Assembly: GCA_934096315.1 (NCBI GenBank)
Contig: CAKOLT010000004.1
Coordinates: forward strand, 1 to 52,818
DNA length: 52,818 nucleotides
Reading direction: 5' to 3'
DNA from: an uncultured Bacilli bacterium
Lineage (GTDB): Bacteria; Bacillota_I; Bacilli_A; RF39; UBA660
Shown: one piece after another, positions 29,024-52,035 of the stretch
How the letters are laid out: every line of letters starts with the position of its first letter
Position numbering within the stretch: position 1 is the stretch's first letter
Program-made: the position numbers and the translations under genes
The notes under the pieces: model-generated
The model's input: only the letters and a program-made list of their open reading frames with translations
Databases searched by the model: none
What the model was told of the DNA's origin: nothing

Positions 29024-29749
29024 TTAATATAATTTAATGTTATCCCAGTTTATAGTTCCATTTTGAAAGTTTAAATTTACTTGTCTTTGTACCTCATTGT
29101 AATTAGAACCTAATGCATTCTTTCTGTTGTCGCCATTACCGAAGTCTCCTCTAATAGTCTTTCTAACTAAATCTAATATGTCAATACTTGGTTCTGATTT
29201 TGGTGATAAAATCTCATTTACTCTTGCTTGTACTTCTGCATATCTATTTCCTAGTCTATCTTTTCTTTCTTGTCCATTACCCCATAAACCTTGGATAACT
29301 TCTTGTGCCAATTCGTCAGTACTTTTTTCAATATTTTTAGTAAATAAATCCTTATCTAAATATGACGTAGGGTCAATTCTAACACCATCTTTCCATACTT
29401 CAAAATGTAAATGTCCACCATAAGCATTACCACTATCAGACATGTAGCCAATTCTTTGTCCTTTTTTAACATAGTCACCATTTTTTACGAGCAAACCTTT
29501 TTGCATGTGAGCATATAAGGTTGCATAACCATTGCCATGGTCTATTTTTACAAAATTACCATAACTCGCATTTCCACTACTGCCTTTCATATTGCCATAA
29601 CCATCTTGTAACATAACTATCATGCCGTCTGAATGTGCTACTACATAATCAAGTGTATATCCTCCACCAACTATATCATTTGCATGATGTCCACTATGAT
29701 ATCCTTGTGTAATTTCGCAGTTTCCCTTTTCTAATATTCTACATTTCAT
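29024..29749 (-). CDS. Endolysin: M23 (LytM) peptidase + two CW_7 (Cpl-7-type) cell-wall-binding repeats
   Basis: Zinc motifs GHHANDI (HxxxD) and GGHLHFE (HxH). Two repeats: ELAQEVIQGLWGNGQERKDRLGNRYAEVQARVNEIL and LVRKTIRGDFGNGDNRKNALGSNYNEVQRQVN. Start at ATG 29749 (MKCRIL). Confidence 0.85.
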   Translation of the reverse strand: MKCRILEKGNCEITQGYHSGHHANDIVGGGYTLDYVVAHSDGMIVMLQDGYGNMKGSSGNASYGNFVKIDHGNGYATLYAHMQKGLLVKNGDYVKKGQRIGYMSDSGNAYGGHLHFEVWKDGVRIDPTSYLDKDLFTKNIEKSTDELAQEVIQGLWGNGQERKDRLGNRYAEVQARVNEILSPKSEPSIDILDLVRKTIRGDFGNGDNRKNALGSNYNEVQRQVNLNFQNGTINWDNIKLY

Positions 29750-29939
29750 TAATATCACTACCTTTCTTATCATTCTTAGCAAAGTAAAAAGTCATAATCA
29801 TCATTACCATTGGTACAAACTGCTCTGATGTCACTTTATCAGTAAACCAACCTACTACCAATGCTATAATCATTATAATTGTCATTATACTTTTTAAATC
29901 AATCAATTTTGCAACTTTTTTTAACACTTCATCTTTCAT
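29739..29939 (-). CDS. Putative holin (two TM helices, charged C-terminus)
   Basis: 66 aa. TM1 IMTIIMIIALVVGWF, TM2 FVPMVMMIMTFYFA, C-terminal KNDKKGSD. Lies immediately upstream of and overlapping the endolysin gene. Confidence 0.6.
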   Translation of the reverse strand: MKDEVLKKVAKLIDLKSIMTIIMIIALVVGWFTDKVTSEQFVPMVMMIMTFYFAKNDKKGSDINEM

Positions 29940-31816: not shown

Positions 31817-33568
31817 CTACTCTGTCGATTCATTACCCATACCACCACCACCGCTACTAACCTCAACTTTTATCCATATAAAACAAGTAATATATGGTGG
31901 CACATTTGCCTTATCGAAATCTTCTTGAGAATATCCACCCTTACCAACAACTAACCTATCTGCAAAAGACGAAGAACCTACTTGCATACCATAACCAGAT
32001 GTTACACATTGCAAAAGACTATCTTTTGTACCACCTGTTTTTTTAACAGTATTAAAATCAGTATCATCTGGATCCACACAGACCAGCATTTTACCCTTAC
32101 CGTACAATTCCCAAGTACCGCCAAATCTAACACTAGGATTTTCATCTCTTGTAGTTAAAAATAAATCACCAACTTGATAATTTGCTATAGGATTTTCATT
32201 CAAATATGCATTACCATACACATAAACTTCATTGTCTCCTATAAAAATAGTCTCTCGTCCTTTTTCTAGATGTACAATTTCTTTAGCAATAACAAACTTG
32301 TCTTCAAAAGAAATCTCGAATTGATACTCTTCTTCATAATCATATAAAACTCCTAATGATAAATCAGTTACCTTAAATGTATTATCTGTGATAGTAGGAG
32401 TTATGTTCCCGCCATCAGTCCAATTCATCTCTCCTGATTTCCTGTACTTGAAACTAGCGGTAAGTGAATTAGTTATAGTATCAGTAAATGATCCATTATA
32501 ATAAGCACCATCACAATTTAGAATAGCCTCATTTGAAGTTCCCTCTGGTCTAGTAATTGATATGGTATTAATATGCAGTTTAATATAATCAATCATATCC
32601 AATTCAACATTTATCGAACTAGAATATCCTCTAGTGTCAAAGGCGGATACTGTTACCTTATTTGACCCAATACTTGCGAATGTATCTTCTTGTAAATTAG
32701 AAACCTGTCCATCATTTAAATTGATAGAATAAGTTTTTATAGCAGAACCATTTTTAGCAGTCGCACTTATAGTTACTTTAGGTTTAGATATGTACTTTAT
32801 AAACTTAGTATTACTACTCGTAATCTCCGTAACACTTGTATTAGTATCAACTATAGTTGCATTTACATCAGGTCTACATGCACTCTCTTTAGTGTATAAA
32901 TTAAATGTAGTAGACTTTGTATCACCTATCTGTGTATCACCACTATATGTTGTACAATAAATAGTTCCTTGTATTTCTTTGGTATTAGGTATTAAAGCAT
33001 ATATAGAATCTTCTATTTCATTTGTCTTAAATTGTACTGTAGTTTCACTTGTCTTTGTAGCAATAGTACCAGTTAAGGTGCCAATATTATAAGTTAGCGT
33101 ACTAGTAAATGATGATGATTTTTTATCTATACTAATGATTGCAGTATCTCCAATATATGGACTACTACAAGCAATTTCACTTGCTCTTGGAATTGTTGGT
33201 AACGTAATTGTTTGACTAACACTACCAATTGGATAATAATTGCTTAATCTACCGTCGAAACTAAATGCTATTTCTATATTCTTAGAACCATCATTATTGT
33301 GATAAACTCTCACAGTGTTTGACACTATATTCTTGTAGCCATCACTTCCTAAATTATAAGAACCGGTATAACTTTTACCGGTTCCATTAATTACTAAGTT
33401 TGCCAGTGATTCTGAATTAAAGGGATAATAAGTCGAATTATTCCTCTTAACATATCCAGTTGCAGTTACATCACTATAATTTTCTGCAATATTTTGTGAA
33501 ATAGAATATTCTACAAGTAAATTAAACCCTCCACTTGGAGTGCCTATATTCCCATTAAAACTACCCAT
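31817..33568 (-). CDS. Tail fibre / receptor-binding protein
   Basis: 583 aa, Ser/Thr/Asn-rich beta-type sequence. The C-terminal module (GGTWELYGKGK...ANVPPYITCFIWIK) resembles the conserved C-terminal tip of many Firmicute phage fibres. RBS GGAGGTG. Confidence 0.6.
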   Translation of the reverse strand: MGSFNGNIGTPSGGFNLLVEYSISQNIAENYSDVTATGYVKRNNSTYYPFNSESLANLVINGTGKSYTGSYNLGSDGYKNIVSNTVRVYHNNDGSKNIEIAFSFDGRLSNYYPIGSVSQTITLPTIPRASEIACSSPYIGDTAIISIDKKSSSFTSTLTYNIGTLTGTIATKTSETTVQFKTNEIEDSIYALIPNTKEIQGTIYCTTYSGDTQIGDTKSTTFNLYTKESACRPDVNATIVDTNTSVTEITSSNTKFIKYISKPKVTISATAKNGSAIKTYSINLNDGQVSNLQEDTFASIGSNKVTVSAFDTRGYSSSINVELDMIDYIKLHINTISITRPEGTSNEAILNCDGAYYNGSFTDTITNSLTASFKYRKSGEMNWTDGGNITPTITDNTFKVTDLSLGVLYDYEEEYQFEISFEDKFVIAKEIVHLEKGRETIFIGDNEVYVYGNAYLNENPIANYQVGDLFLTTRDENPSVRFGGTWELYGKGKMLVCVDPDDTDFNTVKKTGGTKDSLLQCVTSGYGMQVGSSSFADRLVVGKGGYSQEDFDKANVPPYITCFIWIKVEVSSGGGGMGNESTE

Positions 33569-33569
33569 G

Positions 33570-34703
33570 TTACACCTCCAAATCTTCCAATACTTCTATA
33601 AGCTCTTTTAAGTGGAATATTTTTGTTCCTTTTTTACCATTTTTAGTGGATTTTATAAATTTTAAATACCCTATTTGTGCCGTTCCAGTGACTATTAACT
33701 TATCTATACCTGACCCCTTGTTATTAAAGATTGCATTTAATTTTTCATAATTGTATACTTTAATTCCAGTATTATCTAACAATGAGTTATTGGGATCTGT
33801 TGATGTTCCTACTGATAAACCTCTTGTGCTAAAGCTAAAATTCATATCAGTAATCTTGCCTTCAAGTGTTTGAATAGTACCATCCTGTGTATCCAATGTC
33901 TTCTGAATATTTTTCATTGTAATATCAAAGTTATTTACAGTTTGAGTGACTTTTGATTGTTGCTCTTGTAACGTACCAATACTTCTTCCTTGTTCGTCAA
34001 CAAGTTCGGTTGTATTTGTCATTGTAGTATCTAACTTATCAACATCTTTTCTTATTTCAGTAACTGTTCCACTTAGTATAGTAAGATTTTCACCAACTTG
34101 ATTCGCCTTTGTATCATCAGTATACTTAGTAGCAATTGTCCAATCATTCTCTTCGAATGTTTCATCCCCTGCTTTAGTAGTTTGACACCTATATAATTCT
34201 TCATCCTTAATCCATAAATCTCCACAATCATATGGTGGTGTAGGTTCTACAACAAAAACACGTCTTTTACTGTCTGCTGTATCTTTAGCACTATTTGCTA
34301 TTGCTAGAGCCTTCGTAACATCTGTATCAGTAATTTTTATCCAACTATAAACATCATTATCAAATGAATATCTATAGGCATAGCCAGTCTCCTTATCATA
34401 ATAAAGGTCTCCTAGGTGATTATTTTTTTCTGAATCAGTAGTCCATTCACTAGCAGGTTCATTATTTTCGGTAGGAACTCCAGAATAAAACCAGGTAGTG
34501 ATGTTTCCATCTACCTGGTCTTGAAGTTCTTTTAAATTTTTTGCTGTTGCAATAACAAAGCCATTTAATTCACTTTCTACTTTAGTAAGTCCTGTTTTTT
34601 GTAACTCATAACTCTCTTTTAATGTTAAAATATCATTAAGATTATACTTCCTTTCTAAGTCTTCTGGTGTTCGCAATTTATTTATATCTCTTTTATTTAT
34701 CAT
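33570..34703 (-). CDS. Tail fibre / minor structural protein (conserved N-terminal anchor + coiled coil)
   Basis: Motifs GNITTWFYSGVPT, HLGDLYYD, TADSKRRVFV and GDLWIKDEELYRC are typical of Firmicute phage fibre N-termini. ATGA-coupled to the giant ORF. Confidence 0.6.
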   Translation of the reverse strand: MINKRDINKLRTPEDLERKYNLNDILTLKESYELQKTGLTKVESELNGFVIATAKNLKELQDQVDGNITTWFYSGVPTENNEPASEWTTDSEKNNHLGDLYYDKETGYAYRYSFDNDVYSWIKITDTDVTKALAIANSAKDTADSKRRVFVVEPTPPYDCGDLWIKDEELYRCQTTKAGDETFEENDWTIATKYTDDTKANQVGENLTILSGTVTEIRKDVDKLDTTMTNTTELVDEQGRSIGTLQEQQSKVTQTVNNFDITMKNIQKTLDTQDGTIQTLEGKITDMNFSFSTRGLSVGTSTDPNNSLLDNTGIKVYNYEKLNAIFNNKGSGIDKLIVTGTAQIGYLKFIKSTKNGKKGTKIFHLKELIEVLEDLEV

Positions 34704-37700
34704 TTAGCATACACCCTACCATTTCTTACTTTGAAACCAAGTTCTTTTAATTCTTTAGTTTTTTCTTCGACAGAAATATCTTTAGAATTGATAATATTAA
34801 TTAATTCTTTATCGTAAGCAGTAAACCCTACTGTTTTAAGCATAACCTTTTTATCATAAGAAGAAGTATTAATACTATTAACATACTTAACTATTTGGTC
34901 ATCATACTGTTTAAAACTATTATATTCCATTTTAATAAGCATTGCCTTTTGTGGAATTGTTAAATTTAAATTATTAATATATTTAATTACTTTATTTTTT
35001 CTAGAATTAGGAACAGTTTTTCCATTAGTATAATAATCACTTTCAAACTTCTCAGAATTAAACTTTATAAATTCATCAATATTTATTTTTGCATTTAGTA
35101 CAGTATCAATTATTTTTTCACTTGAATAATATTTTCCGTACAAATATCCTTTATACTTATCATTTAATCCAGAATCAATAACTAAATCAGCAATCTCTTT
35201 ATGTTTAATATCGCTTTCCTTATCCTCATCTCCACGAATAACACCAATTTTTACTTTTGCTTTAAAATATTTATTTTTATCAGTATCACTCATATTCAAT
35301 TTATTTATTTCTTCTTTTTCGTCATCCTTTACTTTAGTCCACTCCGACTTACTATTCAAATAATATTCCTGGTCTGAAACCTTACCATAGTTTTCATATG
35401 AAATTACATCTTTATAATCATTTATGGCACTTTTTGATAATTCGTTGATTTGTTTTTGAATTTCCTTAGTTTGATTATACTTGTCACTATCCTTTAAAGA
35501 TGAGCTTTGTATTTCTCTCTTTTTAGCATATAATTTACTAATTTCACTTTTAACTGAATTAACATATTTATTTTTTAACTTATCTTCATCTGTAGCATTA
35601 GAACTGTTAGATTTTTTAGTAAGTTCTTCGCTTAAACTATAGAAATCAGAAATATTTTGATTTTTAAGATTGCTATCTACGGTAAATTTATCTTTAACTG
35701 GGGCTAATAATTTTCCAGCGAAATTATCGCTACCACTCTCAGCCTCTTGAGTTAGATAAGGTAATGTATAGTCTCCTATTGCTCCAGCATATTGGTCTAG
35801 TACATAATTTATTTTATATGGGCTTATATTAAGTTTCTTGCCAAGCCATATACTAATACTATCTGTTGTTTCATCATACTGTTCTGCATTAGGCAAGTTT
35901 TGAAGCCTTGTAGGAACTAAATCACCACCGTACCATGTCTCATTATTAATTGCTTGTATCATTGGAGATAATAAATTACTTTCGCTAGGGTCAGATGGTA
36001 ATACATTGTTTTTTAAAAGGTCTATAAAACCATCTATATCCATTTCTTTACCACTATTTTTATCTATGATATTTTGGAAGAATTTTTGAAGAACACTAAC
36101 TACTCTACCTTTAGGTATTCTAATAAATTTTCCATCTCCATATTTACCAATTATATAATAATTGTTTTTAACATAATCAGATAACTCTTCATAGTCATCA
36201 TCATCAGCCCAAAGCATTCCCATAAGAAGTGCTGGTGTAAGTCCTGCTATCGTCCATCTTACCGCTAATTTAGTAATTCCTTTTATGCCCTCAGCTCGTG
36301 CCTCTTGGACATTTCTAACTTGTTTTGTAGTACCTTGTACTCCAGCATTCAAAAAGGTAACACCATTTCTATCAAGCGTTTTGGTTATATCCCCACCACG
36401 TTTAAAGTTAGTAGTTATTTCTGAAGCATTATACATAGCAGTTTCTATACTATCCCCTGCTTCGATGGAAGCCATAAATTCAGCAAGTCTTGGAGCCATT
36501 TCTATAATCTCATTCATTTCACTTATCTTTTTTAATGGAAGTATTTTGTCTAAAATGCTAGGTGCTATATTAGTTCCAGTATTATAATTAAAATATGTCT
36601 CATAAGAACCACCATTAGCAATATATAATTGTTTATATAGTCCATTATTTTTTATTTGCATAATTGCTTCTGATAAATTTTTAGCAAACAATTCGGGATG
36701 TTTACTGTTTATAGTTCCATCTTGAATATCCTTTAAAGGGTTAGTTATCATAAATAGTGGATTATATTCAGTAAGCAATCCTCTTCTAATATTGTTTAAC
36801 TTATTTAACCATTTTACTGTATATATATTACTTGGCTTTAATGCCTCATATATTTCATCAGATATTTCAAATGTGATTTTCTCACCCTTATCAAAAACAG
36901 TTAGAGTTGCTGGACTATTTTTACTACTTTTAGTTAATAACTCATCACTATTTATCTCTTCCACAATATTATCGACACTTTCTTTATTTCTTATTTGTTC
37001 TGTTTCAATACTATTTAATAATTCAAGACCAAAATTGTTCCTTAGAGCAGAATTAACAGTTTGCATAGTTCTAAGTGCCATTGCCTCTTTTAATGGAATT
37101 ATATTTTCATTACCACCTTTTGCCTTTTTAATAGGGGTATTTACTCTTGCCTTTTTTCCCAGTAAAAAGTCCATATGAGCTCTAGTTTTCGCCTGTTCTC
37201 TAATAACAGGTACATAATGTGGATATTTATTATTATAATATTCCATGCTATCTTTTGATAATACTCCATATTTAACAAGCATTTTTAAATTGGAATTATT
37301 ATAGTCATAAATTTCATCAGCCCAAGCTTCAAACTCAGGATATTTAGTTTCGTATTCATTAACTATCTTTTCTGACATTTTAGAAGTCATACTATCCCCA
37401 AATACTGCTTTATTTGCTTCATTAAATCTACTTTCTAAATTCATCCTATCAACATTGTGTTTATGATAAATATATTTACTAAAATCATCTAGTAAACCAC
37501 TGTTTTCAATGGGCTCAAATATTTCGTATAATCCTTTCCCTACTTTATTACCATCTTCATCTAAACGACCATTGCCTATTATCTGATTAGCAATTCCATT
37601 AGCAAGTAAGGAATAATCATATTTAGAGCTTAACTCCTTATTTTTAACCTTTCTTGCTAGTTTGTCAACATAATATCCTTTATCAACAAACTTAATGGTA

Positions 37701-40700
37701 GCAAGTTTTTTCAGCCAACTATCTTTTTCTTCGATGGTAGTAGGTTTTTCTTTTAATATTTCTGCTAATTGTTCTGGCTCGTCATAGGTACTCTCTTTAG
37801 TTGGATCTTGAGATATATAGTCTGTTTCTTGATTAGAAGAAGATTCTTTAATAGGAGATTTATCTTTTGTGAATTTTTTTTCACTATTTTGCATATTATT
37901 AATAGTAGGTAGTATATCAGATTTGACTTTTTCGTTAGATTGTGGTATATTATCTGTAGAAAAAGCAGGTTGACTGTAAGGTGGCAAGATGTTAGTTCTA
38001 TTACTAATGTCCCCATCGTAGTCGCCTGTTTTTTTCATTTTCTTTTCTAGTCTTTGTACTCTATATTGATTTTCACCATTTTCCATTGAACGAACATCAA
38101 ATTCAAGATAATATAATTCACCATTTATCTCTAAACCATCAAAATAATAGTTCCAATAATTTATATTTTTTCTATTTTTTGTTTCTCTGGTTTGATTAAC
38201 TAATGTAGCATTTTCAATAATATCTCCTAAATCAGAAAAAACTTGTAAATGCTCTTTTATTAAACTTCTTTGAGTTCGATTATTATATATCTTTTCAATA
38301 CTTTCGTTAATTCCAGATTTATTAACAACAATTTTATTGCCTGCATTTTCAAAGGTGTCTTTTTGATTATACTTAATAAATATATCATTTGCCAATTTCT
38401 TTAAATCACCAATATTTATCTTATTTATATCAAAATTACTCAATTCTACAATCTCATTATTAATTTTAACATTTCCATCATAGTTGTTTTTTTCATTTTT
38501 AAATATTTCTTTAACATTTGGATATTTATTTAGTAACTCTTGATTAATAGGAATATTACCTTTTACTTGCTTAATTTGTGAAATATCTATAGGTAGAATT
38601 GCTTTATTGGTATTATTTATACTTGTTACATCTAATACAGGCAATATATCGGAACTTACTTTTGCATATTGACCCTGTGTAGGATCTATCCATGCAACAT
38701 CGTTAATATTTACTTCTTTGGAATAAACTTTACCATTACTTGAATAACTTTCTGCTTCAATTTTAGATGGAGAAACAAAAATACCTTGTTTTATAGGGTA
38801 TGATGAATAAACAGTTATTTTCCCATTTTCAATAGCGTTTTCTATATCTTGTCTTGTTAAATCAGGGTTATATTCATCATAATCTGACCAATCACTATCA
38901 TTTATTGTTTCTTCTAATGTTTTTATATCTTCTATATTTCTAATCCAAGTGTGATAATCATCATTAACTGGGTTATTGTTTTTTATAATATCTAATTGTT
39001 TTTGTTTATAAGAAAAAGAATCATTTTCTAGTTCTTGTGAATTATTTCTGCCTATTGGCATAGAATATTTAGTAGTAGATGATGTATCACTATTGACATT
39101 ATTATTTGATTGTGGTATATTACTACTAGAAAAAGCAGATGTTTCGGTAACTGGTAAGGTGCCTACATTGGTACTCCCAGTGGAAACATTTGCTATAGAA
39201 GAATTAATGCCCTTTGGCAATTGTAGCCACTCGCCATTAATTCTTTTTTTTATTATTCCATCATCTATATCGTAGATTATTCGTTCTTTATTTTGCTCCA
39301 TCCACATCTCATAATTATTTCTACCATATGCACTTGTCATTACGTTTGCATCTAATCTTTTTATTTCATTTTTATTATTAATATCAGTAATTTCTATGTG
39401 ACCCTTTCCGTCTAGTGCCATCGATACAACAATTATCTTACCATCGTTATCTGAAAGCTCTGTTACTACAACAATACTATCTTTTACAGTAGATGATTCT
39501 AAAATGTTTAATGGATTAGCGATTGCACTTGGTAATTGTTTAACAGTTTCAATTCCCAAATTATGATATGTACCTTTTTGTTTTCCAGTATTATTAATTA
39601 TTCTTTCTAGTTTACTTGATGAAACGGTAATAGGTTTATCACTTAGTCCTAAATCCAAATAAAGTTGGGGAGTATGTCTAAATAATACTAATTGACTTCT
39701 ATTATTCCACTTACCTTGAGCCCATAAATCCAATTGCTCTGCGAAAGATAAAGAGGTCTTATTTGAATAATTCAAAGTATCATTTACTTTCGTTTTATTT
39801 ATCAAAGAGCTATTGATTGGAACTACATTATTAATTATTGATACTTGATTAGCATTATTAACACTTGTTACATCTACACTTCTTAATTTTTGAAGAGCAT
39901 TACCAATCGAAGCATATTGTTGTCTAGTCAAGTTTTTAGTTGTAGTAAAGCTCATATCTGACCTTACTTCACTAACATAATTCATAGCAGCAGGTACTCT
40001 TATTCCTACTTCATTAAGCATTGTTTTAATATAACTACCTTTGTATCCCTCAATACTAGGGTCACCCAAAATAAAGCCTTTGATATCTTCTAATATTTCA
40101 GGCTTTATTTTAGTCATATCAATCTTTAAATTACTAGTAGGCATATTTATATTAGAACTATTAAAATCGTTCTCTTTAGGCAAAATACTCTTATCAGAAT
40201 TGACTATATTACTTTGCTCATTATATACAGGTAAATTAATACTATTTTTTGTTTCCTTTTCTTGATTAACTATGTCTTGTACTGTTGGTAAGTTTACCTC
40301 TTCTTTTATGGAAGTACTTGTATCATAGTTTTGATTTTGAATAGCATTCAACTGATTTTTAAGTCTATTTAATTCTATCTCCTGCTCACTAGTTAATCTA
40401 TTTTGTCCTTTCAAAGTCTCGTATTCATTAATCTGAGATATTATTGGTGCTATTTTGGTGTTAACACCTAAATCATTATTAATAGTACTATCAATATTAG
40501 AAATGACTTTGTCTATTTTATCAATAGTATCTTTGTTTGTGGTATTCTTCTTTGTTTCTTCTAGTTCTTCTTTATAAACTTTATATAAATTTATATCTTT
40601 ATTATCTACATTTGTATCCTTACCAGTAATAGTACCTATAACTCCTCCGGTTACACTACCAACTGCTGCAGAATATAGGGCATCAGATAAGACATCACTA

Positions 40701-41833
40701 TCAAATAAAACAGAAACATAATCTTTAGCATTTGTACTCTTTTCCAAAGTAATTAATTTATTAAAATTATCTAAATATTCTTGTATAAACTCTTCTGTTG
40801 CTTCACTCCCTGCGTTTGCCAAAATATTTGCTAATTTAGGTTTTTTTGTTATATTAGTAAATGTCTTTTCAAGTAGTTGTTTGTATTCGTTTGTCCTGCC
40901 CCCAGTCAGGCCTTTGGTTGCACTACCTAAAGCCTTACCAACACCATATTCAAGCCCTACATTAACTAAACCATATATTGTAGCACTACCACTATCATAG
41001 CCGTCCGAAACAGCTTGATTAGTACTATCTACAAACATTTTGCCAAAATACATAGTAGAACCAACTTTAGGCAAGGCAGCATTAATAAGAGTCGCTCCTG
41101 CTATTTTTCCACCCTCATATAAAGTAGTACCAGCAAACCTACCAAGACCCGTATCATAAGATTCCATTACTTTCTGATGTTTCATCTGATTAAATGTAGG
41201 TAAATATTCTAAATCACCATTTTCATTTTTTATCAAACCACCACTGTAATCAAAGATTGATTTAAAGCCAGCATTAAGTCTACCTATAGATTTATCATAA
41301 CCGTTAATATTTTCCTCTGCAACCCTTTGTTTGTCGTAATTATACTTAGCATATCCAACCTTATTTGATTGGTCTTCTAGCTGTTTCATCTGGTTTTTGT
41401 ATTCACTTGATTTTTTAATTTCCTGATACTTATTTTCTATATTTTTATTTTGAGCCAATTTATCTTGACCAGCTGCCATTTCAAACTTACCATTTCTTAC
41501 AATATCAGTTTGGTCTTGAGTAGGTAAAATATTTCGTTGTGTTGAAAAAGGAGTTACTGTAGTTTGTACTCCCTTTTCATAAGTGCTTTTTTGAATATCA
41601 TTTTGAATACTTTTCCTTTTGGATAATTGGTTATTGTATTCGTTTTTATAATAAGAACTGTTTTTTATTTTTTGCATTTCAAAATATTTTAGATCAGCTG
41701 CTTTTTTTTGATTAATTTGACTTGATAAATTTTCTCTATTTTTAGCAATTTTATATGTATTCGGCATTATTTCATTCCGATTAGTATTATTAACAATAAC
41801 TAATTCATTTCCTATTAGTTTGTATCTAGCCAT
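34700..41833 (-). CDS. Giant (2,377 aa) multidomain virion protein; candidate polyvalent ejection/effector protein
   Basis: Single uninterrupted ORF with RBS AAAGGTG. It contains glycine-zipper segments, at least three globular modules separated by N/S/T/P-rich linkers, a ~685-aa C-terminal core with one hydrophobic helix, and a K/E-rich tail. It lies between structural and fibre genes. Confidence 0.8.
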   Translation of the reverse strand: MARYKLIGNELVIVNNTNRNEIMPNTYKIAKNRENLSSQINQKKAADLKYFEMQKIKNSSYYKNEYNNQLSKRKSIQNDIQKSTYEKGVQTTVTPFSTQRNILPTQDQTDIVRNGKFEMAAGQDKLAQNKNIENKYQEIKKSSEYKNQMKQLEDQSNKVGYAKYNYDKQRVAEENINGYDKSIGRLNAGFKSIFDYSGGLIKNENGDLEYLPTFNQMKHQKVMESYDTGLGRFAGTTLYEGGKIAGATLINAALPKVGSTMYFGKMFVDSTNQAVSDGYDSGSATIYGLVNVGLEYGVGKALGSATKGLTGGRTNEYKQLLEKTFTNITKKPKLANILANAGSEATEEFIQEYLDNFNKLITLEKSTNAKDYVSVLFDSDVLSDALYSAAVGSVTGGVIGTITGKDTNVDNKDINLYKVYKEELEETKKNTTNKDTIDKIDKVISNIDSTINNDLGVNTKIAPIISQINEYETLKGQNRLTSEQEIELNRLKNQLNAIQNQNYDTSTSIKEEVNLPTVQDIVNQEKETKNSINLPVYNEQSNIVNSDKSILPKENDFNSSNINMPTSNLKIDMTKIKPEILEDIKGFILGDPSIEGYKGSYIKTMLNEVGIRVPAAMNYVSEVRSDMSFTTTKNLTRQQYASIGNALQKLRSVDVTSVNNANQVSIINNVVPINSSLINKTKVNDTLNYSNKTSLSFAEQLDLWAQGKWNNRSQLVLFRHTPQLYLDLGLSDKPITVSSSKLERIINNTGKQKGTYHNLGIETVKQLPSAIANPLNILESSTVKDSIVVVTELSDNDGKIIVVSMALDGKGHIEITDINNKNEIKRLDANVMTSAYGRNNYEMWMEQNKERIIYDIDDGIIKKRINGEWLQLPKGINSSIANVSTGSTNVGTLPVTETSAFSSSNIPQSNNNVNSDTSSTTKYSMPIGRNNSQELENDSFSYKQKQLDIIKNNNPVNDDYHTWIRNIEDIKTLEETINDSDWSDYDEYNPDLTRQDIENAIENGKITVYSSYPIKQGIFVSPSKIEAESYSSNGKVYSKEVNINDVAWIDPTQGQYAKVSSDILPVLDVTSINNTNKAILPIDISQIKQVKGNIPINQELLNKYPNVKEIFKNEKNNYDGNVKINNEIVELSNFDINKINIGDLKKLANDIFIKYNQKDTFENAGNKIVVNKSGINESIEKIYNNRTQRSLIKEHLQVFSDLGDIIENATLVNQTRETKNRKNINYWNYYFDGLEINGELYYLEFDVRSMENGENQYRVQRLEKKMKKTGDYDGDISNRTNILPPYSQPAFSTDNIPQSNEKVKSDILPTINNMQNSEKKFTKDKSPIKESSSNQETDYISQDPTKESTYDEPEQLAEILKEKPTTIEEKDSWLKKLATIKFVDKGYYVDKLARKVKNKELSSKYDYSLLANGIANQIIGNGRLDEDGNKVGKGLYEIFEPIENSGLLDDFSKYIYHKHNVDRMNLESRFNEANKAVFGDSMTSKMSEKIVNEYETKYPEFEAWADEIYDYNNSNLKMLVKYGVLSKDSMEYYNNKYPHYVPVIREQAKTRAHMDFLLGKKARVNTPIKKAKGGNENIIPLKEAMALRTMQTVNSALRNNFGLELLNSIETEQIRNKESVDNIVEEINSDELLTKSSKNSPATLTVFDKGEKITFEISDEIYEALKPSNIYTVKWLNKLNNIRRGLLTEYNPLFMITNPLKDIQDGTINSKHPELFAKNLSEAIMQIKNNGLYKQLYIANGGSYETYFNYNTGTNIAPSILDKILPLKKISEMNEIIEMAPRLAEFMASIEAGDSIETAMYNASEITTNFKRGGDITKTLDRNGVTFLNAGVQGTTKQVRNVQEARAEGIKGITKLAVRWTIAGLTPALLMGMLWADDDDYEELSDYVKNNYYIIGKYGDGKFIRIPKGRVVSVLQKFFQNIIDKNSGKEMDIDGFIDLLKNNVLPSDPSESNLLSPMIQAINNETWYGGDLVPTRLQNLPNAEQYDETTDSISIWLGKKLNISPYKINYVLDQYAGAIGDYTLPYLTQEAESGSDNFAGKLLAPVKDKFTVDSNLKNQNISDFYSLSEELTKKSNSSNATDEDKLKNKYVNSVKSEISKLYAKKREIQSSSLKDSDKYNQTKEIQKQINELSKSAINDYKDVISYENYGKVSDQEYYLNSKSEWTKVKDDEKEEINKLNMSDTDKNKYFKAKVKIGVIRGDEDKESDIKHKEIADLVIDSGLNDKYKGYLYGKYYSSEKIIDTVLNAKINIDEFIKFNSEKFESDYYTNGKTVPNSRKNKVIKYINNLNLTIPQKAMLIKMEYNSFKQYDDQIVKYVNSINTSSYDKKVMLKTVGFTAYDKELINIINSKDISVEEKTKELKELGFKVRNGRVYAK

Positions 41834-41843
41834 AAAAACACCT

Positions 41844-42902
41844 TTACTTTCTTATATATAGTTTATCTTTTTTAGGACTAACACTTCCTGCTTTATAATA
41901 TTTAACTCCATTTACATCTATTTCATCAATATAACCTTTGTTAATATAATAATCTAATTTTCCAGCAACACTTAAACCAAGAGATTTAATTACATCAATT
42001 GCTGACGTTGATAAATTTGATTTATCAAGGTCTACATTACCAGATGGAGTATCTCCACCAGTATTACCATTAGTTAGAGTTTCATAATAATTCTTTTCTG
42101 CGTTTATACTAGCCCATTTTTGAGCATTCGCAATAGCATCTTGCTGTCTCTGATATTCCATCTCTCTCTCCCAACGTTCTTGTTCTAATCTTTGTTGTTC
42201 TTTTTGATATGCCATATTCTCATTATATTGTCTAATTTTCTCGGCAGTTTCATTTTCATAATTAATTTGACTCTCAACATCTTTATATCTATTGTAATAA
42301 GTATTATTAATGTTATAATTCCAATTCATCCTGTTATTTTCTTGCTCTGATTTATAATTAAATCCTTCAAGTGCAATGTTTAATTTATCTTGTAATGCTT
42401 TCAAAGCATTTTGGGCTAGTGTTTCATCATTGGATAATTGAGCCTGTCTGATTGCATTATCAAACTCTATTCCAGCATCTTGCATGCTTTTTCTTGCAGT
42501 ACCTAATCTATTTTGATAAGTATTATACATACCTACTTTAGAACTCTCTGCATAACCACTGTTAGACAGTCCATTAGCAACAACATTCTCTCGACTAACA
42601 CCATATTTATCTACTTCTTTTTGATAATCTATGTAAGAAGCTTTAGCTTCATCTTGATATGCTTGCTCAGTTTTTTTTCTTTGCTGTTCGATTAAATCTT
42701 TTTGATAATCAAGATTTTTATTTGCAATATCCCTTTGAGTATTTTCCCACCTATCAACCATATCCTGTTGCTCTTTAGTGAAATTATTTCTTTCATTTAT
42801 TAAATTATCATATGTTTCATTGTACTTGTTCATTTCGCTTTGCTTTTCATTTTCAACATCTTTGAATCTTTTGTCATCGTAATTAACATCATAAATCGCC
42901 AT
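41844..42902 (-). CDS. Coiled-coil Q/E/N-rich virion protein (internal/ejection protein candidate)
   Basis: 352 aa with long heptad-like Q/E/K/N stretches. RBS GAGGTGAT. Lies immediately upstream of the giant ORF. Confidence 0.5.
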   Translation of the reverse strand: MAIYDVNYDDKRFKDVENEKQSEMNKYNETYDNLINERNNFTKEQQDMVDRWENTQRDIANKNLDYQKDLIEQQRKKTEQAYQDEAKASYIDYQKEVDKYGVSRENVVANGLSNSGYAESSKVGMYNTYQNRLGTARKSMQDAGIEFDNAIRQAQLSNDETLAQNALKALQDKLNIALEGFNYKSEQENNRMNWNYNINNTYYNRYKDVESQINYENETAEKIRQYNENMAYQKEQQRLEQERWEREMEYQRQQDAIANAQKWASINAEKNYYETLTNGNTGGDTPSGNVDLDKSNLSTSAIDVIKSLGLSVAGKLDYYINKGYIDEIDVNGVKYYKAGSVSPKKDKLYIRK

Positions 42903-42908
42903 ATTTTA

Positions 42909-44630
42909 TCACCTCTTTACATATCCGCCTACAAATGACTCTAATGTATAGTTATTTAAACCAAATGGTTTAGTAGAACTAAACTTCATTTGTAATCGTT
43001 TCCATTTCTTCTTTTTAATTCTATAAACTATATATCCTTTAACATTATTATAAGTATTAACTTCTTCAAAGTCGTTATTATCAGTTTTAACTTCTATTTT
43101 TATACTTTCACCATTAACTTCGGCAGTGCCACCCCTTTTATTAGTAGTTTTTTGATATTCTTGATATTTGAAATCATCATGTTTGGTAGTCCAATAAGAA
43201 CTTATTTCACCATTAGTTTTGGTTAACTTATAAATTTTATTGCTACCACATAAATAAAGCACTCCATCTTTAACAGAAGTGCAAGTAATATTGCAAGATA
43301 ACTCCCAATAATACCATTCATATTCTACATTTATATTTTGATATTTTTGTCTGCTATCTGCTAAATAAACTTTGTTATCTATAATTACTAAAAGATAACC
43401 TTCCCACTCTTCTAATATTAAGTCTTTGTAATTTGGTTCTTTTAGCAGTTTACCATCAACCATACTAGATCTATGTGCTAGTACTTGTTCGCTAGTTACA
43501 TCACCACTAATGGCTTCCATACCTCTATCTGAAAAGAAAACTATATCATCATTAAAATTAATCCCAGTAGAAACACAACCTGTTGTTATACTTGAATGTG
43601 CTGATGGATATATCTTTCCGTATGTACTATCAACAACAGGTGTATGATAAAAGACTGTCGTATTTGCCTGTGATGGCTCTTTTAACACCCATAAAGCATT
43701 ATTACCAGGTATTAGTGCCTTTACCTTTGCTAAGTCCATACCTTCGTTATAATAATCTAAATCACTAACATATCTAGGGTCTTCCAATGAGCTATGAAAT
43801 ATAGCATTAGGATAATCTTGATTTCCACTAAAAAATACTCTATTATCAAATACTGCTAGCATAGTACACTTGTTAATTCTATTTCTATAGCCTTGAATAG
43901 TCTTTCTAAACAATATTTCCACATTGTGTTGTCCATCAGTAGTAGGTGCAGCTGGGGCTGAATTAAAGGTAATACTTCCTTCTGTAACATTGACAGTGAA
44001 GTCTGTTCCTTGTACATAAGTTATTTCATCTAATCCTACTGTAACTTTAGCGGTTACTACATAATCACTATCTATATTTTCAGTATCTAGCTTAAACTTT
44101 GTTGTTTCACCGTCACCTATTCTCAAATTTTTTCTAAGTCCAGTAAGTAAGTTTACATCTTGATATGTTGTTCCTTCACCCGTAGGATCTCCTATTGTAG
44201 TTGTTGGTATAGTACCTTCTACTTCTTTTATTTCAGTTCCATTATATTCAAGATAATTTAAACCATCTTTTATAAAAAGTATGTTATTAAATATAAATGC
44301 TTGGCTCCTAATTAAATTCATACCGCTAAATATTTCAGTATCATTATCATAAAGCTTAGTTCCAGAGTGTACAATTTTATGAGTAACATCTGCAATATCA
44401 TAAAAAAAGAGACCTAATATGGTATTGTTGTATTCCTCTACCAACTCCATATCAGGTCTTGTCTCTATACCAGCACTATTGTTTTTGTAATTTTTCCATA
44501 TGTTTAAACTATCAGGACTTCTTGATAAATTGGTATCATTATTACTGAAATCAACACCTGCAAAGTTATCTACTTTTCTAGTAACTAATGCTCCACTAGG
44601 AACACCACTAGAACTACTATAAGAACTCAT
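42909..44630 (-). CDS. Large beta-rich structural protein (tail hub/nozzle candidate)
   Basis: ~573 aa. Start at ATG 44630 after GAAGGAGAT. Beta-propeller-like repetitive pattern; no family recognised. Confidence 0.5.
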   Translation of the reverse strand: MSSYSSSSGVPSGALVTRKVDNFAGVDFSNNDTNLSRSPDSLNIWKNYKNNSAGIETRPDMELVEEYNNTILGLFFYDIADVTHKIVHSGTKLYDNDTEIFSGMNLIRSQAFIFNNILFIKDGLNYLEYNGTEIKEVEGTIPTTTIGDPTGEGTTYQDVNLLTGLRKNLRIGDGETTKFKLDTENIDSDYVVTAKVTVGLDEITYVQGTDFTVNVTEGSITFNSAPAAPTTDGQHNVEILFRKTIQGYRNRINKCTMLAVFDNRVFFSGNQDYPNAIFHSSLEDPRYVSDLDYYNEGMDLAKVKALIPGNNALWVLKEPSQANTTVFYHTPVVDSTYGKIYPSAHSSITTGCVSTGINFNDDIVFFSDRGMEAISGDVTSEQVLAHRSSMVDGKLLKEPNYKDLILEEWEGYLLVIIDNKVYLADSRQKYQNINVEYEWYYWELSCNITCTSVKDGVLYLCGSNKIYKLTKTNGEISSYWTTKHDDFKYQEYQKTTNKRGGTAEVNGESIKIEVKTDNNDFEEVNTYNNVKGYIVYRIKKKKWKRLQMKFSSTKPFGLNNYTLESFVGGYVKR

Positions 44631-45171
44631 AAGTATCATCTCCTTCTAGATAAATACTACCAGTATGAAATCTTGGATCTAATCTTTGTAACATTTGCTC
44701 ATATCTATTTGAATAAACTTGTCCATAACTAGCTGATATATCAGATTTTAGTAAATCACCAGCAACACCATAAGGCATTATTTCAAGTACATCTGTTGAC
44801 AAATCAAAAGTAAACTCACTATCTTTGGTATCAGCAGTTATTTGTTTAGGATACTTATAATAATACACTTTAGCAGTACCATCACCATAGAAATTAATAG
44901 TGTTACCTATGATGTCATTCTCTACTCCTCTAACAATATTTATTTGAAATAAATCCTTTGCTATCTCCGAAAAATCAATCTCATCCCCATCTGAAACCTC
45001 TAATTCTTCTTTAGCAGGTATTTTTTTAATTCGAGCAATTTCATTTTGAATCTGATTTATAACATCGTTTATTTTATTCGCTATATCAGGATCATCAGTT
45101 AATAATTCGCTTTTATCATTAATTTCCTCAATTAGTCTTAATACCTTTTTTTTCATTTCTAGTAATGTCAT
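44617..45171 (-). CDS. Head-completion / adaptor candidate
   Basis: ~184 aa. Start at ATG 45171 (MTLLEMKKK) after AGGGGTGAT. Assigned only by position after the capsid gene. Confidence 0.4.
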   Translation of the reverse strand: MTLLEMKKKVLRLIEEINDKSELLTDDPDIANKINDVINQIQNEIARIKKIPAKEELEVSDGDEIDFSEIAKDLFQINIVRGVENDIIGNTINFYGDGTAKVYYYKYPKQITADTKDSEFTFDLSTDVLEIMPYGVAGDLLKSDISASYGQVYSNRYEQMLQRLDPRFHTGSIYLEGDDTYEFL

Positions 45172-45529
45172 TATCATCACCCCTATAAACATCTTTCATA
45201 GCAATTAAATCTTTTTCTATTTCATCTAGTGTTGCCATTTCATATGGTGGGATTATATAGCCTTGTTGCTCATCCCATATCAATATCACTCCAGTTGCTA
45301 ATTTTTGTCTTATTGTGCTTATTTCTTCAGTAGTAATTATTTCTTCTTTTCCCAAAACTATCATTTTAATTTTTCTTTCATCATGTATTTCAGTTACAAG
45401 TTCTAAATCTTTCAAAGTCTGATGTACCTTTTTATCTTCAGTCCATTCATCAAATGTTAAAGACTTATTAACTTTTCTTCCAAAATACTGTTTTAAACTT
45501 GGTTTCAATGTATAATATTCAACTTTCAT
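45128..45529 (-). CDS. Small head-associated protein, unknown function
   Basis: ~133 aa. Start at ATG 45529 (MKVEYYTL) after TAGGAGGAAAT. The longer track ORF lacks an RBS. Confidence 0.45.
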   Translation of the reverse strand: MKVEYYTLKPSLKQYFGRKVNKSLTFDEWTEDKKVHQTLKDLELVTEIHDERKIKMIVLGKEEIITTEEISTIRQKLATGVILIWDEQQGYIIPPYEMATLDEIEKDLIAMKDVYRGDDNDITRNEKKGIKTN

Positions 45530-49671: not shown

Positions 49672-51178
49672 TATACAATCACTATCTCCTCTCCATAATC
49701 AGCCTCTAATGGCTCTTCTGACTTGAAATTAAATGCTTGGCTTACTTCTATTGCTTCAACATCAAATATTACTTGTGTCCTTGAATAATAGGCTATAGCA
49801 AGCCCCATTACCAAGTCATCATGGGCTCCTTGTTGTGCTTCTGGTCTTCCCTTTTCATTCCGAACAAAAGTTAGCATTTCTTCAAGTGTTAATTTATCAT
49901 TTATTAATTCAACAGATTCACGAACTATTTTAACTAGTTCTGCTATTATAACAGGTCTTGTAAGTGTTGTAGTCTTAAATCCATAGGACTTGTCCATTAT
50001 ACCTGTATATCTATCTTCTTTCTCTCTTACGAACATATTAGAATAACCTAATCTTACTAATTCTTTATTAGGAAAACTACTAAAATTACTTTCAATGCAC
50101 ATAAGAGCAGGTGTTACTACACCAGTCTTTAAGTTCTTATTAGCATAGTACCAACCCAAACAATACATTTGTCTTACATATAGATCCTCATCCATCTGGT
50201 GTCTTAATCTCGCAACTTGTTTGCCTGTCTTTGCATTAAGTACATGTCCAGTAAACCAGTCAGATCCTTCACCAGCAGTATCACCACCTATACAATATTT
50301 GTATAAATTAGGCAACTCATATAGTTCTATATAACCATTCTTATCATTTATCCACTTAATATCAATAATCTTTTTGCCAGTGGGCATTGTGTCGTCATAT
50401 TTATATTCAAAATAACCAGTCTTGATAGGTCTAGTTATCTCTTGCAACCTTCTACTTACTGCTCTTGCATCAAATACAGTCTTTCCTAATACTCCCCACA
50501 TGCCCAAACAATAAACATTGTAATAGTACTCATCAGTGTCTTTATAGCTCTCTAGTAACTTCTTATAATCTTCATCTAAGAATTTATTATCCTTATACGT
50601 TGTATGTACTATAGTTAAATTATCTCTTGGTATATCAAAGAATTTCTTTTTTAGCCAATGATTAATGTCGATTGGATTAAAAGATATAACTATTTGTTTC
50701 TTACTCCCTTTACCTCTTAACCTAACATCTAATTGATTGAAATCGCTTTCTAGTATTTCAGAAGCTTCTTCTATCCAGATATCAGTAAGTTCACCTTTAC
50801 TAAAAGTGACTGATTTTAACTTTTCAACATCATCTAGTCCACTGAATATTATTTCATTACCATTAAGTAAACACTTTATTCTTAGATCACTTTCATTTAT
50901 TTTAAAGTGCATACCTAAATGCCATTTATTAATAACCTGCTTAAACAAAGCAAATGTACTATCTCTATTACTCTTACCAGTAGCACGAACTGTCAATAGA
51001 TTCATCATTTTTGAATTGAGTATTTTGTATATGTATCTTTCAACGACAAAGAAAGATTTACCACTACCAGTCAGGCTCCACCATAAAATATCAAATATCT
51101 ATCTGTGTTGCCAAGATATGGTATATATACATCATTAAATACTTTTTTCGAGATTTGAATATTTATGGTGTTGTTCAT
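49671..51178 (-). pseudogene. terL: Terminase large subunit (PBSX/Terminase_3-6-like) interrupted by a frameshift inside the Walker A motif
   Basis: The N-terminal 35 codons (51178..51074, MNNTINIQISKKVFNDVYIPYLGNTDRYLIFYGGA) end at TGA 51073..51071. The rest (GSGKSFFVVERYIYKIL..., Walker B DIWIEEA, nuclease motifs GGDTAGEGSDW and AHDDLV) continues in the -1 frame through the 445-aa track ORF. RBS GGGGGTGAT precedes the 51178 ATG. Confidence 0.8.
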
Positions 51179-51194
51179 TTTATCACCCCCAAAG

Positions 51195-51722
51195 TTAATT
51201 TAGACAAAAATTATATCCTTTTCTATTTTTCATTCCTTTAAAAATAGAATTATATATAGTTTTTTTATTTATATTTAATGCTTTAGAAGCAATAGTGATG
51301 CTTTCGTATGTATTAATATAAATACCATTCAAAAATACTTTAATTGATTTCTTATTGGTTTCTTTTCCATTGAAAGCATTATTCAATACTTGCCTTTTAA
51401 ATCTTTCATTATTGGCAAAGCAATGTTTAGTATTTCCACTAATTGTAGTCCACTCAAGATTTTCAACATTGTTATTTAATTTGTTACTGTCTAGATGATT
51501 GACAATATTATAGTCTTGTTTATGTTCTATAAATGCTTCGGCAACAAGTCTATGAACTCTTTTATAACATCTAGAATTGTTGTGACTATTAAATAAACAA
51601 ACTTCAAAATAACCATCTTTTGTAACTTTTGGTTTTAATATTTTATTTCTTTTTACTGAAAAAACTCTGCCATCATTACTCACTTTATATAAACCTTCAA
51701 AGTTTTTAACATCCCTAAACAT
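51195..51722 (-). CDS. Free-standing HNH homing endonuclease (NUMOD4 + HNH_3 + C-terminal HTH)
   Basis: Motifs FRDVKNFEGLYKVSNDGRVFS (NUMOD4), VHRLVAEAFI...VNHLDSNKLNNNVENLEW (HNH_3) and C-terminal ASKALNINKKTIYNSI. Start at ATG 51722 after AAGGTGAT. Confidence 0.8.
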   Translation of the reverse strand: MFRDVKNFEGLYKVSNDGRVFSVKRNKILKPKVTKDGYFEVCLFNSHNNSRCYKRVHRLVAEAFIEHKQDYNIVNHLDSNKLNNNVENLEWTTISGNTKHCFANNERFKRQVLNNAFNGKETNKKSIKVFLNGIYINTYESITIASKALNINKKTIYNSIFKGMKNRKGYNFCLN

Positions 51723-51732
51723 CAATATCACC

Positions 51733-52035
51733 TTATTCATCTACTATATCAACTTTAATCGTATACATTGCCTCTTGTTCTACTTTATCAACAGGTTTCT
51801 CACCTATGGTATCTCTTATTACTTCATATGCCTTGGTATTACCATTCATTGCCTGTTTAATCAAAGCTAATGATACCTTTTCTTGTGTATTACCTTTAGA
51901 TAATAGTAATAACAGTTCTTCTTTCAGTGCTTTTCTTTCTTGTCTACTTTTACCACTAGCTTTTCCTCCATTTTTTCCTTTTTCTCTCGCTTCGCTCTCG
52001 GTTCGAATTGGTTTTAGGTTGGTTACGTTTGCCAT
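51733..52035 (-). CDS. terS: Terminase small subunit candidate
   Basis: ~100 aa. Basic N-terminus NLKPIRTESEAREKGKNGGKASGKSRQERKA, helical C-terminal half, first gene of the late operon upstream of terL. Start at ATG 52035 after AGGTGAT. Confidence 0.55.
   Translation of the reverse strand: MANVTNLKPIRTESEAREKGKNGGKASGKSRQERKALKEELLLLLSKGNTQEKVSLALIKQAMNGNTKAYEVIRDTIGEKPVDKVEQEAMYTIKVDIVDE

Follow-up and report, generated by a model that had tools for sequence, protein, structure and literature searches.

Polyvalent proteins are among the largest and least understood proteins of phages. A contig of 52,818 nucleotides from an uncultured Bacilli bacterium (CAKOLT010000004.1), analysed over its full length and referred to here as the window, carries part of a prophage with an open reading frame (ORF) of 7.1 kb, which raises the question of what the product of so large a phage gene could be. 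The window corresponds to NODE_850 of ENA ERZ15261768, a Hadza gut metagenome. The original prediction, made by eye from the sequence, described a modular giant virion protein occupying the slot of the ejection proteins. The giant ORF is real, and its domain content identifies the product as a polyvalent protein of the kind defined by Iyer et al. (2017); this protein is probably packaged in the capsid and ejected from it, in a podovirus-type temperate prophage.

A single reading frame for a polyvalent protein

The giant ORF (34700..41833, minus strand) starts with an ATG codon and encodes a protein of 2,377 amino acids (about 270 kDa), the translation of which contains no internal stop codon and no cysteine. 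It had been described as an uninterrupted frame with a ribosome-binding site, coupled to the next gene by an ATGA overlap, and this is confirmed by the ORF list and by reading of the sequence; the Shine-Dalgarno-like site shares its last base with the TAA stop codon of the preceding gene. As the window has a G+C content of only 29%, an open frame of 7.1 kb is not a chance feature.

Three Pfam families are matched above their curated cutoffs: MuF_C (PF18819; aa 751-849, 59.8 bits for a cutoff of 27.6, E = 3e-16), LPD3 (PF18798; aa 1143-1257, 45.9 bits for a cutoff of 27, E = 7e-12) and LPD38 (PF18857; aa 1878-2031, 99.6 bits for a cutoff of 27, E = 3e-28). Several LPD and effector domains are, thus, present in one polypeptide, its gene lies among those for terminase, portal, capsid, adaptor, fibre and lysin proteins, and its architecture is mosaic and shuffled among orthologues, all of which characterise polyvalent proteins. 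A resemblance to MuF-C, LPD and PBECR-type modules had been proposed and is borne out by these profiles; the label “PBECR-type” is also right, because MuF-C was placed in the PBECR clade of BECR-fold metal-independent endoribonucleases (Iyer et al., 2017; PMC5512222). The module boundaries drawn by eye differ from those of the profiles and models by no more than a few tens of residues, except at the end of the core. The segment at aa 693-873 contains the MuF_C match, that at aa 954-1057 (module iii) corresponds to a confidently folded domain (aa ~940-1059) matching phrog_13543, and that at aa 1115-1264 contains the LPD3 match. The core does begin at aa ~1370, as proposed, but Pfam and an AlphaFold2 model extend it to aa ~2200 rather than aa 2054.

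Among 12 aligned MuF_C modules, His757 (Y-H-x-L) is invariant and Thr833/Ser834 lie within a conserved motif (VMTSAYGR). These residues fit the description of the PBECR active site (Iyer et al., 2017; PMC5512222). Because of this conservation, the MuF_C module, a predicted endoribonuclease, looks catalytically competent.

The remainder of the N-terminal half is less legible. The N-module (aa 58-696) starts with basic sequence rich in K, N and Q. Hydrophobic helices rich in Gly and Ala come next (aa 223-404), and beyond them lie a coiled coil at aa ~460-499 and a small alpha/beta domain at aa ~570-659. The Gly/Ala-rich region is as originally described; the term “glycine zipper” has behind it a sub-threshold match to Gly-zipper_YMGG (E = 0.077), which belongs, with FadA and Imm57, to the noise obtained in such regions. 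In segment-wise Pfam and PHROG scans of the dark regions, the only match above noise was that of module iii to phrog_13543 (E = 7.7e-30), a family of unknown function. Module iii has no Pfam family and no PDB match in profile scans and Foldseek searches, and is the best-folded part of the middle region in the AlphaFold2 model. The model of aa 200-1300 has a mean predicted local distance difference test (pLDDT) score of 50 and is confident only at aa 460-499, 570-659 and 940-1059; its best Foldseek match in the PDB has an E-value of 0.27. The N-module and module iii together place about 830 residues outside any Pfam family. No peptidase family was found in Pfam at E ≤ 1, including the zincin-like metallopeptidase (MPTase) that is frequent, though not obligatory, in polyvalent proteins.

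Three layers of a mosaic protein

The giant protein was compared by BLASTP with 120 close homologues. The N-module is about 77% identical in ~110 of them, and the C-terminal tail (aa 2203-2377) is present in a similar number (~110 of 120). The region between the N-module and the core (aa ~700-1330) is variable, with MuF_C found in ~15 of the homologues, module iii in ~60-74 and LPD3 in ~20-34; orthologues in the same genomic slot carry ART-PolyVal, PBECR3, LPD23 or ParB in place of these domains. The core (aa ~1330-2200) is highly identical in 30 of the 120, the remaining homologues being unaligned there in this BLASTP comparison.

The picture is wider when the core is used as a profile. It matches 27,030 cluster representatives at E ≤ 1e-3 and 18,417 at E ≤ 1e-30, and in the best 150 of the 27,030 the core is C-terminal, in proteins of ~800-3,400 aa. 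Modules were counted in 141 of these representatives: the core is present in all 141 and the tail in 115, whereas the N-module is found in four, MuF_C in 10, module iii in nine and LPD3 in none. Searches with tblastn detected the same core in giant proteins of Bacillus phage Page, PTXU04, a Pelagibacter podovirus and many Vibrio phages. The core is C-terminal in Page gp20 and PTXU04 gp25, the two records inspected, and the gene for Page gp20 is the last structural gene before the holin.

Because homologue counts differ by segment, the core and tail being common, the cassette variable and the N-module narrowly distributed, the protein is, in terms of its sequence, a mosaic of three layers: a constant C-terminal chassis (aa ~1370-2377), a swappable cassette (aa ~700-1330) and a lineage-specific N-module (aa 58-696). 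Synteny and module shuffling in related prophages had been proposed as a check on the original prediction, and they show a gene order that is kept (in the prophages L005, L006 and L007) around a cassette that is swapped.

The chassis and its relative in phage phi24B

An AlphaFold2 model of aa 1340-2200, based on a 47-sequence alignment, is almost wholly helical and ordered from aa ~1370 (pLDDT 80, predicted template modelling score 0.76). It has no fold neighbour in the PDB by Foldseek (best E = 1.3), and searches of PDB sequences with the whole protein, a core profile and an N-plus-middle profile (phmmer, hmmsearch) gave nothing below E = 0.08. In contrast to these PDB searches, 73 matches to the core were found in BFVD at E ≤ 1e-3, the best with template modelling (TM) scores of 0.6-0.8 over ~900 aligned columns. 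Most of these are later pieces of long viral proteins, one being E. coli phage PTXU04 gp25; some bear annotations of RelA/SpoT, type I methylase or lytic transglycosylase domains, and the named matches among the top 50 are mostly annotated polyvalent-protein (LPD) proteins. Since homology and the model cover the whole core of more than 800 aa, Pfam LPD38 (189 positions, 154 aa here) is, on this comparative and modelling evidence, only the most conserved piece of a far larger conserved region. The single strongly hydrophobic helix followed by DDDDYEE that had been noted in the core is confirmed by a hydropathy scan: aa 1856-1874 (LAVRWTIAGLTPALLMGML) form the only 19-residue window with a Kyte-Doolittle hydropathy above 1.4, and the hydrophobic character is retained in 45 of 47 family members.

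An informative relative of the chassis is gp47 of the Stx2 phage phi24B, which contains LPD5, LPD1, LPD38 and MuF-C domains and has a size of 2,811 aa according to the preprint describing it (bioRxiv 10.64898/2026.04.10.717836) and 2,807 aa as the GenBank coding sequence vb_24B_48. This protein was found by proteomics to be abundant in purified virions, was unseen in the cryo-EM map and was proposed to be an ejection protein (bioRxiv 10.64898/2026.04.10.717836). HHalign aligned the core profile with phi24B gp47 aa 1909-2789 at a probability of 99.8% (E = 1.7e-29, 733 columns), and by this alignment homology spans most of the core, not the LPD38 motif alone. The two proteins have in common that they are giants of temperate podoviruses with a C-terminal core of ~850 aa, encoded at the downstream end of the late region. 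They differ in that the cores are only ~18% identical, in their N-terminal modules (LPD5 and LPD1 in phi24B; the N-module, module iii and LPD3 here) and in their hosts, which are Gram-negative for phi24B and probably Gram-positive here, given the M23 and CW_7 lysin of the prophage and a relative's protein named Erysipelotrichaceae. The preprint labels MuF-C a metallopeptidase, in conflict with the BECR ribonuclease assignment of Iyer et al.

Probable packaging and ejection

The giant gene lies between adaptor and nozzle-side (tail-hub) genes and fibre genes, as podovirus ejection genes do; in P22, the genes for the needle and the tailspike likewise enclose the ejection-protein genes 7, 20 and 16. 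Its assignment to an ejection-protein slot is supported by synteny in related prophages and by the C-terminal homology of ~850 aa to phi24B gp47. The original prediction also held that the prophage lacks genes for a tail tube, sheath or tape measure, and this was confirmed by PHROG and Pfam analysis of the neighbouring genes, which revealed no tube, sheath, tape-measure or chaperone gene in the neighbourhood. A tape measure or fibre was considered for the giant protein itself and rejected, there being no such Pfam or PHROG matches, a globular all-helical core and none of the accompanying tube, sheath or chaperone genes; the earlier statement that it is not built like a tape measure stands.

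The most probable interpretation is that of a capsid-packaged, ejected polyvalent protein, and we infer packaging, ejection, membrane insertion and ribonuclease activity as its likely properties. The conserved chassis would build the protein into the procapsid, and the protein would be kept inside the head until infection, when it would leave through the portal and nozzle, either before the DNA or together with it. The hydrophobic helix of the chassis, the Gly-rich N-module or both may help to span the cell envelope. The cassette domains could then act in the cytoplasm on host or defence RNAs in the first minutes, with the MuF_C/PBECR module as the candidate for cleaving such RNA early in infection.

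Several observations weigh against this interpretation. The presence of the giant protein in virions is suggested indirectly, through its phi24B homologue, and the prophage is incomplete, cut by the end of the contig. The AlphaFold2 model has pLDDT values of 24-47 over the MuF_C module, where the BECR fold is predicted from the profile. The helix at aa 1856-1874 is moderately hydrophobic (Kyte-Doolittle ~1.5) and may just be buried in the fold. There is no sequence or fold likeness to solved ejection proteins of the T7, P22, N4 or cyanophage A4 types. A Pfam scan of the giant protein revealed neither a peptidoglycan hydrolase nor a processing metallopeptidase domain, leaving cell-wall penetration and effector release unexplained. 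Finally, in two of the five assemblies of the same prophage that cover a run of adenines before the core (ERZ27287075 and ERR7747083), this run has seven bases instead of eight (A7 instead of A8) and the gene is split.

The prophage and its genes

The first part of the window (1-28546) is host chromosome, with genes for MreB, ThrRS, a MurA-type enzyme, a P-type ATPase, RF1, DinB and Tex, and the provirus occupies 28547-52818, so that 24 kb of prophage are present on the contig. From 29024 to the contig end, all genes are on the minus strand and form a podovirus-type late module. In order of transcription, the head side comprises the terminase large subunit, a P22-type portal, a 301-aa protein in the position of a scaffold with no family match, the major capsid protein and a 151-aa protein. 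These are followed by an SU10-type adaptor, a 576-aa protein and a 352-aa protein (neither of the latter two having PDB relatives found by sequence), the giant ORF, a 377-aa coiled-coil tail protein, a DUF859/Gp10_C fibre, small ORFs and a lysin. The coordinates are given in Table 1.

Table 1. Features of the giant ORF and of its surroundings (positions in the window)
Feature	Position	Strand	Basis or remark
Shine-Dalgarno-like AAGGTG	41839..41844	-	5 nt 5' of the giant ORF ATG; sequence read
N-module, aa 58-696, lineage-specific	39746..41662	-	no Pfam or PHROG family
MuF_C/PBECR-clade module, aa ~697-880, predicted metal-independent endoribonuclease	39194..39745	-	Pfam
Module iii, aa ~940-1066, acidic alpha/beta domain, function unknown	38636..39016	-	AlphaFold2, pLDDT 75-98
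LPD3 module, aa ~1111-1270	38024..38503	-	Pfam PF18798, phrog_18222
A8 homopolymer (coding strand), codons ~1318-1320, linker before core	37874..37881	-	assembly comparison
Conserved C-terminal core, aa ~1370-2200, all-helical globular, holds LPD38	35234..37726	-	AlphaFold2
Hydrophobic helix, aa 1856-1874, then acidic DDDDYEE	36212..36268	-	Kyte-Doolittle
LPD38 match, aa 1878-2031	35741-36202	-	Pfam PF18857
C-terminal tail module, aa 2203-2377, basic (isoelectric point 9.0)	34703..35227	-	isoelectric point; homologue counts
ATGA stop/start overlap, giant ORF and downstream 377-aa tail protein gene	34700..34703	-	sequence read
SU10-type adaptor	44617-45192	-	Pfam SU10_adaptor
576-aa protein	42909-44639	-	upstream tail gene
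352-aa protein	41844-42902	-	upstream tail gene
Upstream tail genes as a block	41844..45192	-	gene order kept in L005-L007
Downstream tail and fibre genes (377-aa coiled-coil tail protein, 583-aa DUF859/Gp10_C fibre)	31817..34703	-	PHROG tail families, Pfam

The related prophages L005, L006 and L007 have the same gene order around the giant gene. L006 additionally carries a serine recombinase and a CI-like repressor, which indicates that these phages are temperate. The lysin (29024-29782, minus strand) is a Peptidase_M23 protein with CW_7 repeats, pointing to a Gram-positive-type cell wall in the low-GC host. The 377-aa tail protein (33570-34703, minus strand) has matches to internal stretches of three giant PHROG families, whose profiles are 2,681-3,605 aa long; one of these families is annotated as a tail protein and two as of unknown function. 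In other phages, therefore, its domain seems to be built into a giant protein.

Alternative explanations and the integrity of the gene

The giant protein could instead be an external component of the tail, such as a central needle, a plug or a scaffold for the fibres, situated outside the capsid. The location of its gene among tail genes and its ATGA coupling to those for the 377-aa tail protein and the DUF859 fibre are consistent with such a role, as is the occurrence of the domain of the 377-aa neighbour within giant PHROG families, one of them annotated as a tail protein. This is nevertheless decidedly unlikely, because the core is a compact helical globule, neither fibrous nor beta-helical, and effector-type modules lie in the middle of the protein (MuF_C/PBECR here, ART or ParB in orthologues). 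The phi24B homologue, moreover, though plentiful in virions, is missing from the reconstruction of tail and capsid, and the slot among tail genes is also that of the P22 ejection genes.

A second alternative is that the gene is a decaying relic of a defective prophage, without function and open in this assembly by chance. The A7 frameshift is one argument for it. The split gene would encode products of 1,355 aa and 914 aa, the downstream ORF restarting at aa ~1464 inside the core, with the loss of ~95 core residues and a gap of 320 nt. The A8 form, with an intact ORF, is present in the other three assemblies (the window, from ERZ15261768; Logan ERR7745556; and SRR24884116). The two A7 assemblies display no other difference from the window over the 24 kb and 4.8 kb compared. 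The ratio of non-synonymous to synonymous substitution rates (dN/dS), determined against relatives in which the ORF is unbroken, is 0.17-0.22 in the N-module and 0.07-0.10 in the core; as these values are low on either side of the A-run, the two halves belong to one gene under purifying selection, and the intact form is the functional state. The A7 form is read as a recent slippage mutant or as a population variant in the lysogen. A break of the ORF on resequencing had been named in advance as a finding that would count against the original prediction; the break does occur in two of the five assemblies, the other three are intact, and dN/dS favours the intact form. Programmed slippage at the A8 site was rejected, A-runs being frequent in the gene (six runs of A7-A8) and the site at codon ~1320 not being conserved in relatives, with none in L006.

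Two related loci also have altered genes. In L009, an in-frame TGA codon (4144-4146) in the middle of LPD3 splits the giant gene into segments of 1,034 and 1,169 aa in the same frame, and a nonsense mutation, an assembly error and read-through are each possible. A natural division into two genes, suggested by this locus, was rejected, because the break is a TGA codon within the LPD3 domain. L010 (10001-13981) is a truncated prophage remnant in which a core-only gene (1,326 aa), fibres and a lysin abut host ABC-transporter genes, with no head genes present.

Besides the A7 frameshift, both of these loci, the interruption of the terminase frame in its P-loop (see below) and the presence of just 24 kb of prophage on the contig can be cited in favour of a relic. 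Such a relic is, however, very unlikely. A 7.1-kb open frame at 29% G+C could be maintained only under selection, and dN/dS values of 0.07-0.22 are found to either side of the A-run. Three of the five assemblies have an intact gene, the A7 ones being otherwise unchanged, and even the interrupted terminase is strongly constrained by purifying selection (110 synonymous differences against 14 non-synonymous). Finally, a phase-variable switch, in which A8/A7 slippage would toggle between the full-length protein and a 1,355-aa effector-only product as a regulated form of bet-hedging, would fit with the A-run being the sole point at which the compared stretches (24 kb and 4.8 kb) differ and with its position in the linker that joins the effector half to the chassis, but is extremely improbable given the number of A7-A8 runs in the gene, the lack of conservation of this one (L006 has none), the cost of the A7 restart in core residues and the 320-nt gap, and the possibility that both A7 assemblies stem from one sample.

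An interrupted terminase gene

The analysis also brought to light an anomaly elsewhere in the late module. At window ~51060-51170 (minus strand), the gene for the terminase large subunit has a 5-nt insert (TGACT) in the codons of the Walker A motif, or P-loop. The window reads TAT GGT GGA GCC TGA CT GGT AGT GGT AAA, whereas the uninterrupted gene of L007 reads TAT GGT GGT GCT GGT AGT GGT AAG, so that the insert introduces an in-frame TGA and a change of frame, with YGGA and a stop in one frame and LTGSGKSFF... in another. The identical insert is found in L006 (~780-800) and L099 (~1207-1223), the DNA of which has diverged from the window by 11-13%. Over the 467 codons 3' of the insert, synonymous differences outnumber non-synonymous ones by 110 to 14 and by 98 to 15 in the two comparisons, and by these counts the codons downstream of the insert are under strong purifying selection.

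A Shine-Dalgarno-like GGUGGAG lies immediately 5' of the insert. A 5-nt hop would restore YGGA directly followed by GSGKS exactly, and a -1 shift would give YGGALTGSGKS; the insert is, thus, a candidate for a short translational bypass or a -1 frameshift. Streptomyces phage Hau3 offers a close precedent in its terminase, which has two inserts of 10 nt that were proposed to be translationally bypassed, with experimental support for one site (PMC10732093). The exact 19-mer for the insert is absent from IMG/VR, and a scan of metagenome contigs with a 17-mer gave 58 matches, of which just one (L099) is a true terminase. An ORF for an HNH/NUMOD4 endonuclease (51195-51740, minus strand) lies directly upstream of the interrupted terminase and is absent from L007. 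This insert may be a more unusual feature of the window than the giant ORF.

Comparison with known systems

The polyvalent proteins described by Iyer et al. (PMC5512222) resemble the giant protein in being large multidomain polypeptides that combine LPDs with effectors, in having mosaic orthologues, in having virion genes as neighbours and in their predicted delivery with the DNA. According to Pfam, the giant protein differs from them in having no zincin-like MPTase hub, no MuF N-terminal domain for targeting to the head and no methylase-helicase or ART domains. Another parallel, by description, is provided by the prophages phi1 and phi4 of Clostridium clostridioforme LM41, each with an ORF of ~8 kb that accounts for close to 20% of the phage genome and has limited similarity to LPD3 (PMC11318856). 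They are predicted podovirus prophages; their DNA was detected in the culture supernatant by quantitative PCR, and mostly podovirus-like particles were seen there by transmission electron microscopy (PMC11318856). These ORFs share with the giant ORF a gut Firmicute host, a podovirus-type temperate prophage and a likeness to LPD3; they are located at the 3' end of the prophage, whereas the giant ORF is followed by fibre and lysis genes.

The likeness to P1 DarB, N4 virion RNA polymerase, T7 gp16 and P22 gp7, gp20 and gp16, some of which had been offered as conceptual precedents, is a functional analogy only. Such internal proteins are stored in the head and ejected, and they protect or express the DNA or build a conduit across the envelope. 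No sequence or fold similarity to them was found in PDB sequence searches or with Foldseek, and the giant protein has none of their methylase/helicase, RNA polymerase or lytic transglycosylase domains. A further-reaching and quite tentative possibility is that the core and tail form a self-contained ejection device made of a single polypeptide, with a fold unlike that of solved structures, which would replace the three-protein ejectosomes of T7, P22 and N4 in podoviruses of both Gram-positive and Gram-negative hosts. The conserved helix and acidic motif would then switch from a buried to a membrane-inserted state on ejection, and the variable N-terminal modules would be threaded through as cargo.

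Implications for polyvalent proteins

The combination of modules was initially presented as unrecognised, and its novelty was overstated. The class shuffles its modules constantly and rapidly, so the combination is new only in a trivial sense; the chassis is shared by ~27,000 cluster representatives, and ORFs of ~8 kb with limited similarity to LPD3 are already on record from predicted podovirus prophages of a gut Firmicute (PMC11318856). The description “functionally dark” is fair, because ~830 aa lie outside Pfam and the chassis has no solved structure, but it does not set this protein apart, since it holds for the whole family and is recognised in the literature. For the chassis family, one report was found of a homologue detected in virions, that on phi24B gp47, and no PDB structure was found for any member.

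Knowledge of the polyvalent class is left unchanged. The locus adds a member whose constant chassis, swappable cassette and lineage-specific N-module can be cleanly told apart, evidence for a conserved region of more than 800 aa with a confident model and no solved-structure neighbour, and a gut prophage of Gram-positive type where the ejection-protein slot seems to be occupied by a single giant protein. Its value is that of a well-delimited target for virion proteomics, cryo-EM and assays of PBECR activity.

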